Assembly: GCF_054482595.1 (NCBI RefSeq)
Contig: NZ_CM137008.1
Strand: one strand, 5' to 3'
Length of the DNA: 64,000 nucleotides
Shown: positions 9,917-15,329 of the stretch, one piece after another
How the letters are laid out: each line of letters starts with the position of its first letter
Position numbering within the stretch: position 1 is the stretch's first letter
Program-made: the position numbers and the translations under genes
The notes under the pieces: generated by a model
Told to the model about the DNA's origin: nothing
The model's database searches: none
The model's input: the letters and a program-made list of their open reading frames with translations, nothing else

Positions 9917-10292
9917 GGGTGACTCTGAATAAGGATTAAACCTCTATGATAGGTAACCTGAAGGCTGATGACCAGCAGGCCGTTTTTGAGGAAAAACCAC
10001 AATTTTAAAAGGGGATTGATAGATAAATGGTGTATTAGCAATGCATCTCTTGATAATGCACTTCTGGTTGGTAAATTTATTGAAATTATTATGTTAATAA
10101 AATGAGTGGTAATTTTCTTGTTAGCGCAGATAATTTTCCTGTTTTTAAAGCAGAGTTCCTCATTTAACGTCATTAATAAAAATGTTCTAAAACGCTGGAC
10201 AGACAGAAATTAATCAGGCTATTTTCAAAACAGCCACCATCGTGGCAGCGTCGCTCGGACGGTCCGGGCGCTAACGTTAATCTGAGGAAATT

Positions 10293-11531
10293 ATGGCTGA
10301 CACTCGCCCTGAACGTCGCTTTACGCGCATTGATCGTCTCCCGCCCTATGTTTTTAACATTACCGCTGAACTGAAAATGGCTGCGCGTCGGCGCGGCGAA
10401 GATATTATCGATTTCAGTATGGGTAACCCGGACGGTGCGACTCCGCCGCATATCGTCGAAAAATTATGTACTGTGGCCCAGCGCCCGGACACGCATGGTT
10501 ACTCCACTTCACGCGGTATTCCGCGGCTACGTCGCGCCATTTCCCGCTGGTATCAGGATCGCTACGACGTTGAAATCGACCCGGAATCAGAAGCCATCGT
10601 CACTATTGGTTCGAAAGAGGGCCTGGCGCATCTGATGCTGGCGACACTGGATCACGGTGACACAGTGCTGGTGCCGAATCCAAGTTACCCCATTCATATT
10701 TACGGCGCGGTGATTGCCGGGGCTCAGGTACGCTCAGTGCCGCTGGTGGAAGGTGTCGATTTCTTCAACGAACTGGAGCGCGCCATTCGTGAAAGTTATC
10801 CGAAACCGAAGATGATGATCCTCGGCTTCCCGTCGAACCCAACCGCGCAATGCGTGGAACTGGAGTTCTTCGAAAAGGTTGTGGCGCTGGCGAAACGCTA
10901 CGATGTGCTGGTGGTCCATGACCTGGCCTATGCCGATATCGTCTACGATGGCTGGAAAGCGCCGTCAATCATGCAGGTGCCGGGTGCACGCGATGTGGCG
11001 GTCGAGTTCTTTACGCTGTCGAAAAGCTACAACATGGCGGGCTGGCGTATCGGCTTTATGGTTGGCAACAAAACGCTGGTCAGCGCCCTGGCACGTATTA
11101 AAAGCTATCACGATTACGGCACCTTTACGCCGTTGCAGGTGGCGGCGATTGCGGCACTCGAGGGCGATCAACAGTGCGTGCGCGACATTGCCGAACAGTA
11201 CAAACGCCGCCGTGATGTATTGGTTAAAGGGCTGCATGAAGCGGGCTGGATGGTCGAAATGCCGAAGGCTTCGATGTATGTCTGGGCGAAAATACCGGAA
11301 CCGTATGCTGCCATGGGCTCGCTGGAATTTGCCAAGAAATTGCTTAACGAAGCGAAGGTCTGTGTCTCTCCGGGGATTGGCTTTGGCGACTATGGTGATA
11401 CGCATGTGCGCTTTGCACTGATTGAAAACCGCGACCGTATTCGTCAGGCGATTCGTGGGATTAAAGCGATGTTCCGTGCCGACGGTTTACTACCCGCCAG
11501 CAGCAAACATATTCACGAAAACGCGGAATAA
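10293..11531 (+). CDS. alaC: Glutamate-pyruvate aminotransferase (class I/II aminotransferase)
   Basis: 412 aa ORF with the PLP-lysine motif region ([12 protein letters not shown]); synteny. Confidence 0.85.
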
Positions 11532-11551
11532 ACACCGACCTCAGAAATGCA

Positions 11552-11578
11552 AACAGGAGCCTGATGGCTCCTGTTTTT
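11552..11578. terminator. Rho-independent terminator-like hairpin between convergent alaC and ypdK
   Basis: aacaggagcc-tgat-ggctcctgtt stem-loop followed by TTTTT on the plus strand; could serve both convergent genes. Confidence 0.6.
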
Positions 11579-11595
11579 CATTGCACAGTTTGCTT

Positions 11596-11667
11596 TTAGA
11601 TCATCAGGGCAAAAGTACCGGCCCAAACGATGACCATAAAAGAAATGCCCATAAAGAAATATTTCAC
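11596..11667 (-). CDS. ypdK: Small membrane protein YpdK (23 aa)
   Basis: Minus-strand translation gives (V/M)KYFFMGISFMVIVWAGTFALMI*, recognised as YpdK; apparent GTG start; below the ORF-track size cutoff. Confidence 0.6.
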   Translation of the reverse strand: MKYFFMGISFMVIVWAGTFALMI

Positions 11668-12022
11668 TTTACATCTCTCCGCGTAATTGCTGTTACGCCT
11701 GAATGACTTCATTACACCTGATACAGTGAGTTGACACCGGGCAAAACGACCTTAAAAGTCCTGTATTTTACCGTGGGCATCACCCCAGAATTCTGAGCTA
11801 AACTGCTCGAGACGGCGCTAATGTACGCCTAAAACTGAAACGAGACAAGAGGCATTTTCTTATTTACTTTTAGTAACTTACAGGTGTCTCATATCGGCGA
11901 CAGTTTAATTTCTGACGGTAATAATTAGATATTCAGCGAAGGAAAAAACCTTAAGAAAAAAGCCATAAAAACCATGAGGTTATTATGGCTTATGTGAGGA
12001 GGTAAAGAGTCAGAGCAGTTTG

Positions 12023-12943
12023 TTAAATGTATAACGACGATTCTCCCACCGGGCGCGTTTTAAAGCGACGGTGGATCCAGAGGTACTGCTCCGGTGCGCG
12101 CATGATTTCTTTCTCGATAATCTTGTTCATATAGGCAGCGGCTTGATTTTCATCTGTCGGGTAGCCTTCCATCTCTGGGGTGATGAACAAACGATATCCG
12201 CTGTAATCCGCTTTTCTTACCATCGTTACGGTCAACATGGCTGCGCCAGAGAGACGGGAGAGAACATAGGTGCCATTGGTTGTGGCGACATTTTCTACCG
12301 CAAAGAACGGCGCGAAGGAGCTGCCTTTACGACCATAATCCTGATCGGGAGCAAACCATACCGCTTCACCTTTCTTCAGTGCACTGACAATGCCGCGCAG
12401 ATTATTTCTGCCGATCATCGCTTTGTTAGAGCGCATGCGACCACGGGTCTGCACCCATTCCATCAGCTGATTATTATGTGGACGATAGGTAGCCATCATT
12501 GGCTGACAAAGTCCCATCACGCGGCCGCCCAGTTCCAGCGACATAAAATGGACGCCGACAACCATTACGCCGCGATTTTGCATTTGTGCGCGTTTAAGGT
12601 TATCCAGCCCTTCAACATCAAACCATTTACGTACGCGACTGTCGGGCCAGAACCACGCCATGCCGGTTTCTACCAGCGCCATGCCGAGTGAACGAAAGTT
12701 TTCGGCAATCATCTTCTCGCGTTCTTCCGCAGAATGCTGCGGGAAGCAAAGTTCCAGGTTTTTACGGGCGATAGATTCACGCCGTTTCAGGAATGGTCGC
12801 GCCATTGCGCCAATACGCGTGCCGAGAAAGCAGAGAACAGGATAAGGAAGCTGTACCCAAAGCCAGAGTACACCAAGCCCAAACCATGTGAGCCAGTAGC
12901 GAGGATGTAGAAACTCGCGGGAAAATTTGCATTGTGGAAACAT
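12023..12943 (-). CDS. lpxP: Lipid A palmitoleoyltransferase (cold-induced late acyltransferase)
   Basis: ORF 12023..13009; recognised LpxP with likely start at MFPQCKFSREF (12943); HtrB/LpxL family. Confidence 0.85.
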   Translation of the reverse strand: MFPQCKFSREFLHPRYWLTWFGLGVLWLWVQLPYPVLCFLGTRIGAMARPFLKRRESIARKNLELCFPQHSAEEREKMIAENFRSLGMALVETGMAWFWPDSRVRKWFDVEGLDNLKRAQMQNRGVMVVGVHFMSLELGGRVMGLCQPMMATYRPHNNQLMEWVQTRGRMRSNKAMIGRNNLRGIVSALKKGEAVWFAPDQDYGRKGSSFAPFFAVENVATTNGTYVLSRLSGAAMLTVTMVRKADYSGYRLFITPEMEGYPTDENQAAAYMNKIIEKEIMRAPEQYLWIHRRFKTRPVGESSLYI

Positions 12944-13295
12944 AGTTACCTTCTGTAGATACGAATTGTTGTATCGCAGAAGATTCCATGTCGACAGCGG
13001 TACACTCAATTGGTTGGGCCATCATGTACGACAATGGTTCCTGTAAAGAGTGTAAAGACTAGTCAGGACATAACCACGAGGAGCATGAATGCGGTGGCTC
13101 TACTTTATCACTGGCTGACTGCTTTCAGCTACTGATTATTAATCGTGCAAAGTAAATATTTTTCCGTACATAACAGTCTTGCATTTAACATACTGTTTTC
13201 ATTGATGCTTAGCAAAAATTGCCAGAGGTTAAGGATTGTCTTACTATTAAAGTGACTGAAGTTACAGGTTTTTTAGCGCGGCAGGAGGTTGAGCT

Positions 13296-13538
13296 ATGAT
13301 TTATTTATGGATGTTTCTCGCCCTGTGTATTGTCTGCGTAAGCGGCTACATCGGTCAGGTACTGAACGTGGTATCGGCGGTCTCTTCTTTCTTCGGCATG
13401 GTGATCCTCGCTGCACTCATTTATTACTTCACCATGTGGTTAACAGGCGGTAATGAACTGGTGACGGGGATATTTATGTTTCTTGCCCCGGCTTGTGGCT
13501 TGATGATTCGCTTTATGGTGGGGTATGGCAGGCGGTAG
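13296..13538 (+). CDS. yfdY: Small inner-membrane protein
   Basis: 80 aa hydrophobic ORF in the K-12 yfdY position. Confidence 0.6.
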   Translation: MIYLWMFLALCIVCVSGYIGQVLNVVSAVSSFFGMVILAALIYYFTMWLTGGNELVTGIFMFLAPACGLMIRFMVGYGRR

Positions 13539-13614
13539 TGGGTCAGGATGGCTCATTTGGGCAGGTGTTCACATCAGCATCAGACATGATTGCTCACCTG
13601 CCATGTGACAGACG

Positions 13615-13890
13615 CTATCGCACAGGATGAATAAGATAACTCGCCTTTGTCGGATAAGTGGGCGTGGTTTCTTCTGTGAGGTTTAATGGTGGCGCATCTT
13701 CTCTCATCTTAAACAAAATCGCCTGTGATGGCTGAAATTTTGTAGAGTGAGTTGTCGTCATCGCTGACGTTTTTTCCGTCTCTTTATAGCTCGCCTCACT
13801 ACCACCACCAGAAATAGAAAATGCAAAAACATTGCATGCCATAATAGAGACCAATAAAAATAAGCTAAAAAGCATTAAGTTTACTTTCAT
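13615..13890 (-). CDS. ypdI: Putative lipoprotein
   Basis: 91 aa ORF with signal peptide and lipobox-like (SIMAC) motif; AT-rich; synteny. Confidence 0.55.
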   Translation of the reverse strand: MKVNLMLFSLFLLVSIMACNVFAFSISGGGSEASYKETEKTSAMTTTHSTKFQPSQAILFKMREDAPPLNLTEETTPTYPTKASYLIHPVR

Positions 13891-14042
13891 AGAAAGTTAT
13901 CCTGAAAATGGTTCACTGAAAACCTACGACGTTATGGCTGTATTTACATATAATTAATCAGTATTTACATCGATATAATAAATGACATCTCTTTGTGGTA
14001 TATAAGAATAGTTCTCTGTGACAGGAAGCAGATTCCTACAAC

Positions 14043-14060
14043 TGTAAGATTAAAATACTT
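14043..14060. promoter_or_regulatory. Candidate EvgA box upstream of yfdX
   Basis: TTCCTACA-AC-TGTAAGAT, a near-perfect match to the EvgA inverted-repeat consensus TTCYTACA-N2-TGTARGAA, about 125 bp upstream of the yfdX start. Confidence 0.55.
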
Positions 14061-14185
14061 CTTGCGATAATAACTACAAGTGTAAGATAACCCTTTCAAA
14101 ATGACCGTTGCTCTCTGATTTCTCATTTCATGCTCACCCAATATGATGGCGGCGTTTTCTAAAACTGTTAAAGAATGAGGTAAGT

Positions 14186-14818
14186 ATGAAACGTTTAATT
14201 ATGGCTACGATGGTCACAGCTATTCTGGCATCTTCAACTGTATGGGCTGCTGATAATGCACCGGTAGCGGCACAACAGCAAACTCAGCAAGTTCAGCAAA
14301 CCCAGAAAACGGCAGCAGCAGAGCGTATCTCTGAACAAGGTTTATATGCGATGCGTGACGTGCAGGTAGCGCGCCTGGCTCTGTTTCATGGCGATCCGGA
14401 AAAGGCAAAAGAACTGACCAATGAAGCTTCCGCTTTGTTGTCAGATGACAGTACCGAATGGGCAAAGTTCGCTAAGCCAGGTAAAAAGACCAATCTCAAT
14501 GATGACCAATATATTGTCATTAATGCATCTGTCGGAATTTCTGAGAGTTATGTAGCGACACCCGAAAAAGAAGCCGCGATAAAAATTGCCAATGAAAAAA
14601 TGGCGAAAGGGGATAAAAAGGGCGCAATGGAAGAGCTTCGCCTGGCCGGTGTTGGTGTAATGGAAAACCAATATCTGATGCCGCTTAAACAGACTCGTAA
14701 TGCACTTGCTGATGCGCAGAAACTGCTTGATAAAAAGCAATACTACGAGGCAAACCTGGCGCTTAAAGGTGCGGAAGATGGAATCATCGTCGATAGCGAA
14801 GCACTGTTTGTGAACTAA
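14186..14818 (+). CDS. yfdX: Periplasmic protein YfdX
   Basis: 210 aa ORF with signal peptide; recognised YfdX; synteny. Confidence 0.8.
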
Positions 14819-15061
14819 TGCTGACTGGCAGTATATTGAGGTAAAGGATTTAACTCCCTCCAGACGACAATTTTTTATGACCACAATACGACAGGTTGTG
14901 GTCATAAAATTATTTGGCGCTCGCTGTTCTATAAACTCGCATTTTATATTCCTCAAAGTAAACCGCAATAATCCCGTGTCATCACAAATCATTTAATATG
15001 TTATATTTTATGGTACGCTTTAAAAAGCGTAATCATACCCTTACTTGTAAATCACCGGCGC

Positions 15062-15079
15062 TTCTTACAGTTGTAAGAA
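15062..15079. promoter_or_regulatory. Candidate EvgA box upstream of frc-oxc-yfdV-yfdE
   Basis: TTCTTACA-GT-TGTAAGAA, an 18/18 match to the EvgA inverted-repeat consensus, about 250 bp upstream of frc. Confidence 0.6.
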
Positions 15080-15329
15080 TAACATCACAAATGTCGCGAC
15101 TCTCTCTGATTACCACGAACCAATATTTATCATATTCTTCTTTTCGTCCTCACTACTTACCATGCAGAAAGGAATTGGAAGTAGCGATGAAATGATTTTC
15201 AGCACTTGATACAGGAATGTAAAAATATCGAGTGCAGCTACGACGATATTTTGCGGATTATTTATAGAGGCGTTATGCCTTAAATAAACGCTAAATTAAC
15301 ACATATTTAATTAACTAATAGGTATTGCT

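Follow-up and report, generated by a model that had tools for sequence, protein, structure and literature searches.

The question raised by the DNA that follows alaC in the window (the whole 64,000-nucleotide stretch that was analysed, to which all positions refer unless MG1655 is named) is whether an open frame of 23 codons with a GTG start is a translated gene, and where its transcript would begin and end. The original prediction had placed there a gene named ypdK, encoding a hydrophobic 23-residue peptide on the minus strand at 11596..11667. Retranslation of this segment returns the same peptide, VKYFFMGISFMVIVWAGTFALMI*, in a frame reading GTG AAA TAT ... ATC TAA, with the start codon at 11667..11665 and the stop codon at 11598..11596. 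The segment is a base-for-base match to the RefSeq CDS ypdK (b4680, "membrane protein YpdK"), and RefSeq agrees on the gene name, position, strand, peptide and GTG start, for K-12 MG1655 as well as for a strain that shares the sequence of the window throughout a 701-base query (11400..12100). In MG1655, the RefSeq annotation gives ypdK at 2496921..2496992 with lpxP upstream and alaC convergent. Several E. coli chromosomes are 100% identical to this query, and, of 5426 complete E. coli genomes, 5422 contain the gene at 95% identity or more.

The peptide scores 57.5 bits against the NCBIfam equivalog NF033437 (cutoff 30), over profile positions 1-23 of 23, and belongs to no Pfam family. The exact sequence is present in the protein collection as "membrane protein YpdK" (NCBI) and "Uncharacterized membrane protein YpdK" (UniRef). 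Sequence, coordinates, strand, start codon and neighbours are thus those of YpdK (b4680; NF033437), with no difference. PMC3009722 counts ypdK among the 18 small membrane proteins that Hemm et al. 2008 (PMID 19121005) reported. Both the annotation of the gene and the 3' end of its transcript are already published, so that the feature holds no novelty, the earlier reader having recognized a known gene, and as a finding it has little importance, ypdK having been part of the E. coli annotation since 2008-2009. The case does indicate that a reading of the sequence alone can recover a gene lying below length thresholds. Overall, the feature can be equated, with a probability of about 90%, with ypdK, a genuine gene that figures in the annotation and encodes a single-helix membrane peptide of 23 residues. 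The elements of the locus are collected in Table 1.

Table 1. Positions of ypdK, its expression signals and its neighbours in the window.
Feature	Position	Strand	Description
alaC (alanine transaminase)	10293..11531	+	ORF list and RefSeq; stop codon 19 nt before the hairpin
ypdK transcript 3' end	11548	-	MG1655 2497040, converted via the ypdK stop at 2496992
Stem-loop between alaC and ypdK	11551..11578	both	Stem 11551-11561 with 11566-11576, loop TGAT, T tract to 11578
ypdK CDS	11596..11667	-	GTG start, 23 codons, TAA stop; single hydrophobic helix; translation and RefSeq
Shine-Dalgarno GGAG	11677..11680	-	9 nt upstream of the GTG
ypdK leader	11668..11813	-	About 146 nt; long-range helix, and hairpin abutting the Shine-Dalgarno
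ypdK promoter (predicted)	11820..11848	-	-35 TTGTCT 11848..11843, 17-bp spacer, -10 TACATT 11825..11820, then AGCGCC
lpxP terminator hairpin and T tract	11956..11991	-	AAGCCATAA...TTATGGCTT and T run; separates lpxP from the ypdK promoter

The working of the locus may be pictured in the following way. ypdK would be transcribed alone, by way of a conserved promoter of the sigma-70 type located some 150 nt before the gene. Its transcript would carry a structured leader, and translation from the GTG would be served by the GGAG Shine-Dalgarno. Transcription would then stop at an intrinsic terminator hairpin (11551..11576), and the same hairpin, copied from the other strand and followed there by a UUUUU tail, would also end the transcript of alaC. 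Finally, the YpdK helix could pack against a larger inner-membrane protein, in the manner of other small membrane proteins.

Homologues were collected via AlaC from 80 species-level Enterobacterales loci, in which the region downstream of alaC was inspected. A ypdK homologue of 23-24 codons is convergent to alaC in 75 of them; these loci belong to Enterobacteriaceae, Erwiniaceae and Serratia, and include Escherichia, Citrobacter, Salmonella, Enterobacter, Kluyvera, Buttiauxella, Cedecea, Pantoea, Erwinia and Mixta. Of the five loci devoid of a homologue, one is truncated by the end of its contig, and the other four (L068, L078, L080, L081) do not carry the gene beside alaC. In one of the latter, Erwinia endophytica (L068:5236-5420), the ypdK open frame is absent, yet a promoter remnant (TTTATT ... 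TAAATT) and the hairpin that follows alaC are still there, which indicates a lineage-specific loss of ypdK. Conversely, 0.7 to 1.6 kb of extra DNA separates alaC from ypdK in Buttiauxella brennerae (L043:5239-6859) and in two Serratia loci (L073:4863-5565 and L079:5236-5940). As ypdK retains its own hairpin, promoter and GTG despite these inserts, it does not depend on abutting alaC.

A promoter-like element precedes ypdK in 74 of the 75 loci. It comprises a -35 box TTGTnn (TTGTCA-like) or TTTATT, a 17-bp spacer, a -10 box TA(C/A/G)ATT and the G+C-rich discriminator AGCGCC, and a promoter with such a discriminator is kept across three enterobacterial families. A simple promoter scan omits it because its match to the consensus is too weak. 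Transcription predicted from this element would start near 11813, in agreement with a tiling-array transcript that begins 148 nt 5' of ypdK and shows a modest UV induction (PMC3009722 File S3); the Cappable-seq supplements have no entry near the expected start. Judging from its conservation and from the tiling-array transcript, ypdK appears to have its own conserved promoter. Upstream, a 3' end of lpxP was mapped by Term-seq at MG1655 2496632, 67 nt past the lpxP stop (PMC7815308), and among the loci, adjacency of lpxP and ypdK is limited to Escherichia, Citrobacter, Salmonella and Enterobacter. As lpxP ends upstream of the promoter and the promoter is more widespread than this adjacency, ypdK is probably transcribed independently.

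A functional link between ypdK and lpxP as a general rule was considered and rejected, since lpxP adjoins ypdK in those four genera only. The strand opposite to lpxP carries an RNA gene, tpke70 (about 12023..12943, plus strand), which is found in the MG1655 Term-seq gene list and is absent from the RefSeq feature table. Just upstream of the ypdK -35 box, an inverted repeat, TGTCACAATTTTGAGACA, is found in six loci (L039, L048, L050, L052, L057 and L064), and the two Serratia loci L073 and L079 carry at that place a CRP-like inverted repeat, TGTGATCAAAAACACA. These repeats hint at lineage-specific control by transcription factors.

The segment that lies between the predicted start and the GTG could be more than a spacer. 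RNAalifold applied to 38 Enterobacteriaceae leaders predicts two helices, one long-range (11786..11777 with 11737..11728) and one forming a hairpin directly 5' of the Shine-Dalgarno (11697..11693 with 11686..11682); both belong to the minimum-energy fold of the E. coli leader. Standard pairs are found in 92% of the cells of these helices versus 29-59% when the partner strand is slid, and covariation reaches 0.478 versus 0.288 in shuffles, none of 500 shuffles attaining the observed value. Compensatory changes affect 8 of the 13 pairs, against 7.2 in shuffles (195 of 500 reach 8). Conserved blocks of the leader have a pairwise identity of 0.66-0.85 versus 0.48 at four-fold sites of alaC. In the E. 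coli minimum-energy fold, the 5' CGUCUC is moreover base-paired to the GAGAUG located beside the Shine-Dalgarno, a pairing that lies beyond the reach of the covariation test because its bases are invariant. The conserved GAUG before ypdK can pair with CGUC at the 5' end of the leader.

The Erwiniaceae leader looks different and has a covarying 5' hairpin; a 5' hairpin in the Enterobacteriaceae leader does no better than shuffles. A CUCUCU block was tried as an anti-Shine-Dalgarno and rejected, as it is unchanged across the GGAGAG, GGAGCG and GGAGTG variants. No Rfam family matches the leader at E <= 1 in the window and five related loci, and an overlapping match to Plastid-psbJ-2 (23.5 bits for a gathering score of 65.6) is due to chance. 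Leaders are short in Erwinia persicina (L076) and in the group of Klebsiella sp. BIGb0407 (L057, L064), with 48 to 73 nt from the -10 box to the GTG, and the leader is dispensable for ypdK since some species have such very short ones.

These data tentatively suggest that the ypdK transcript carries an undescribed conserved cis-regulatory leader, which might control translation of the peptide or act on other transcripts; pairing of its 5' end with the GAUG beside the Shine-Dalgarno would be one example of a route of translational control. A broader proposal, compatible with the main explanation, is that the transcript has a second role, exerted either through such a cis-regulatory leader or by base pairing with other RNAs. 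It would account for a leader of about 146 nt placed before an open frame of 72 nt, for two helices with compensatory changes, for unpaired leader blocks that are more conserved than synonymous sites and for a U-containing tail on the terminator. The very short leaders of some species and the non-significant 5' hairpin of Enterobacteriaceae, together with the lack of any known ligand, partner RNA or condition, make this second role rather doubtful. The transcript does resemble dual-function RNAs such as SgrS/SgrT, which likewise combine in a short transcript a long conserved structured non-coding part, a tiny open frame and a terminator hairpin, but for ypdK this is a resemblance only, RNA pairing and binding by Hfq or ProQ being without support. 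Whatever the function of the leader, the gene is best explained as ypdK encoding its membrane peptide, and the promoter and leader could show when this peptide is made and, hence, what its role is.

At the other end of the gene, a hairpin had been proposed at 11552..11578. It is indeed present, but these coordinates correspond to the stem plus the T tract, the stem itself being 11551..11576. Its arms, AAACAGGAGCC (11551..11561) and GGCTCCTGTTT (11566..11576), form 11 bp including 6 GC pairs, and the stem lies 19 nt from the alaC stop (11531) and 19 nt from the ypdK stop codon, the two stops being about 64 nt apart. The region folds with -22.1 kcal/mol on the plus strand and -22.5 kcal/mol on the minus strand (z = -3.6 and -3.4, respectively, versus dinucleotide shuffles). 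An A run on one side of the stem and a T run on the other give it the anatomy of a two-way intrinsic terminator; on the alaC strand the GC core is followed by UUUUU, and on the ypdK strand by UUUGCAUUU, an interrupted and weaker tail. A simple terminator scan of 11300..12100 misses this hairpin and gives as its sole match a weak site within the ypdK open frame.

A GC-rich hairpin is found in 73 of the 75 spacers between the two stops, with 61 distinct stems, and in 71 of the 75 spacers shuffles match the observed hairpin in at most 1% of cases. Hairpins were tested sequence by sequence, one cross-family terminator alignment having misaligned the stems. The variety of stems includes AGGAGCC, GGCGCC, GGGAGCC and GGGGCGAC. 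Within Enterobacteriaceae, the core CAGGAGCC is replaced by CAGGCGCC, AGGGAGCC, AAGCGCC or CGACAGG, both arms varying jointly, and the stems have an A run on one side and a T run on the other, so that a U tract follows the stem in both reading directions; several Enterobacter spacers are perfectly symmetric (A7...T7). Stems of Erwiniaceae are GGGGCGAC/GTCGCCCC or GGGTCAGG/CCTGACCC, with no T tract on either side; lacking U tracts, they may protect or stabilize 3' ends instead of terminating transcription. The hairpin is therefore conserved as a structure rather than as a sequence.

Published 3'-end data confirm that the hairpin is the end of the ypdK transcript. Term-seq of MG1655 gives a 'primary' 3' end of ypdK at 2497040, 48 nt past the stop codon (PMC7815308, Supplementary file 1, sheet M63 0.4). 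This end is the A of UUUGCA, 3 nt past the extended stem and 6 nt past the GC core. The proposal that the hairpin terminates both genes thus stands for ypdK, whose 3' end maps just past the stem. As to alaC, the Term-seq table of PMC7815308 lists no 3' end at the hairpin; its transcript most likely also ends there, as suggested by the stem and the UUUUU on the plus strand. The view that the hairpin serves alaC only, ypdK ending elsewhere or by the action of Rho, could invoke the better T tract on the alaC side (TTTTT versus TTTGCATTT), but it is contradicted for ypdK by the primary 3' end just past the stem, and the fully symmetric A7/T7 flanks of many spacers of the Enterobacter group also oppose it. 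Moreover, the Rho termination regions listed in Supplementary file 2 of PMC7815308 include neither ypdK nor alaC (absence from this list being no proof), so that this view appears very improbable. The hairpin resembles known bidirectional intrinsic terminators in its single GC-rich stem, flanked by A's on one side and T's on the other and placed between two convergent stops, and in the 3' end mapped for the strand of ypdK. It differs from them in that use by alaC is deduced, that the U tract on the ypdK side is interrupted and that the Erwiniaceae versions have no U tracts.

That the transcript bounded in this way is translated is argued by the pattern of substitutions. Among 69 distinct ypdK sequences, entropy is 0.58, 0.19 and 1.13 at codon positions 1, 2 and 3, i.e. 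six times higher at the third than at the second position, and pN/pS is 0.28, synonymous sites being near saturation. Seven residues (Y3, M6, G7, S9, G17, T18 and F19) are invariant in these sequences, which span three families, and K2, W15, L21 and M22 change almost never. Each of the 75 species loci has a GGAG-type motif just 5' of the GTG, and this motif is invariant in the alignment A1 of 38 Enterobacteriaceae sequences. The GTG start, already predicted and also given by RefSeq, is kept in all of the 75 related loci. The codon entropies, the pN/pS, the invariant residues and the fixed GTG and GGAG-type motif together indicate that ypdK is a translated gene under purifying selection. This constitutes strong comparative evidence that selection acts at the protein level across Enterobacterales, as far as can be judged from sequences. 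The gene is unmentioned in the Weaver 2019 preprint, and no ribosome-profiling support for it was found there.

The alternative of a conserved non-coding transcript with an incidental open frame could draw on the conserved and structured leader. It is hardly credible in view of substitutions of protein type (the entropies, the pN/pS and the seven residues invariant in three families) and of the maintenance in 75 loci of the frame, the GTG, the GGAG-type motif and the length of 23-24 codons. In addition, a tagged YpdK product was reportedly detected by Hemm et al. in 2008. Just as implausible is a longer product of 38 residues (MKSFRRNSNYAERCKVKYFF...) from an in-frame ATG at 11712, since, although 11596..11712 is given in the ORF list as one open frame starting with ATG, an in-frame stop 1-2 codons before the GTG in most Enterobacteriaceae genera excludes it as the conserved form, the extension is unconserved where the upstream frame is open, the NCBIfam model aligns with no more than the last 22 of the 38 residues, and this ATG has no Shine-Dalgarno, whereas a GGAG-type motif precedes the GTG in every locus. 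The product of ypdK is thus best regarded as the 23-residue peptide initiated at GTG.

The start codon and its surroundings have some peculiarities. The GTG is invariant despite near-saturated synonymous sites and although an ATG would serve as a start there too, which points to selection for the weak start itself or for a local RNA structure; the codon that follows it is AAA in all but two loci. Between the Shine-Dalgarno and the GTG, E. coli carries an ATG-TAA 'start-stop' (11669..11674, minus strand), the ATG of which is unlikely to be used because it lies just 2 nt from GGAG. In most other Enterobacteriaceae, the corresponding place is occupied by an out-of-frame GATGA, whose TGA forms the in-frame stop that precedes ypdK.

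Apart from a single basic residue at the N terminus, the peptide is hydrophobic, with a peak Kyte-Doolittle mean of 2.09 over 15 residues. Conserved residues are clustered at both ends of the helix (K-Y-x-x-M-G-x-S and W-x-G-T-F-x-L-M) and the middle is variable; a single conserved helical face that would act as an interaction surface was rejected (periodicity permutation p = 0.31). No function is given for YpdK in the literature that was searched. No chain resembling it was found among solved structures, which therefore lend no support to a hidden subunit of a solved complex. In E. coli, several small single-helix proteins are partners of larger inner-membrane proteins, namely AcrZ of AcrB, CydX of CydAB, KdpF of KdpABC, MgtS of MgtA, MgrB of PhoQ and PmrR of LpxT. 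YpdK shares with proteins of this type a length within 20-50 residues, below length thresholds, one hydrophobic helix and the conservation of a few small and aromatic residues. It differs from them by not being in an operon with a membrane complex and by having no known partner, phenotype or inducing condition. By analogy, its likeliest role, with roughly even odds, would be to assist or regulate a larger inner-membrane protein as a small partner. The only constant neighbour is alaC, transcribed towards ypdK, and its aminotransferase is not known to have a membrane role; ypdA/pyrS, encoding a pyruvate-sensing kinase, is often but not always found beyond alaC.

The original prediction had further suggested that other small protein genes are hidden in AT-rich intergenic regions around 13000..15300. 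These regions are AT-rich (34-41% G+C), except for the 76-bp spacer between yfdY and ypdI (53%), but a simple screen of the intergenic regions within 12944..15329 revealed no credible additional gene: none of their open frames of 10-70 codons combines a Shine-Dalgarno with a YpdK-like hydrophobic span, and the current annotation of MG1655 has no small gene in the matching region. The sole candidate, a weak one, is a frame of 16 codons located upstream of yfdY (13085..13135, plus strand; MNAVALLYHWLTAFSY) and preceded by a Shine-Dalgarno-like motif. It is probably not a gene, as it is found in E. coli only and has amino-acid changes between strains.

The Term-seq data of PMC7815308 also include a very abundant 'orphan' RNA 3' end near 10281 on the plus strand, 12 nt before the alaC ATG (10293), with 39,893 and 64,902 reads in two retrieved rows. 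It lies just past a GC-rich hairpin in the 5' untranslated region of alaC, which suggests either a stable leader fragment or premature termination.
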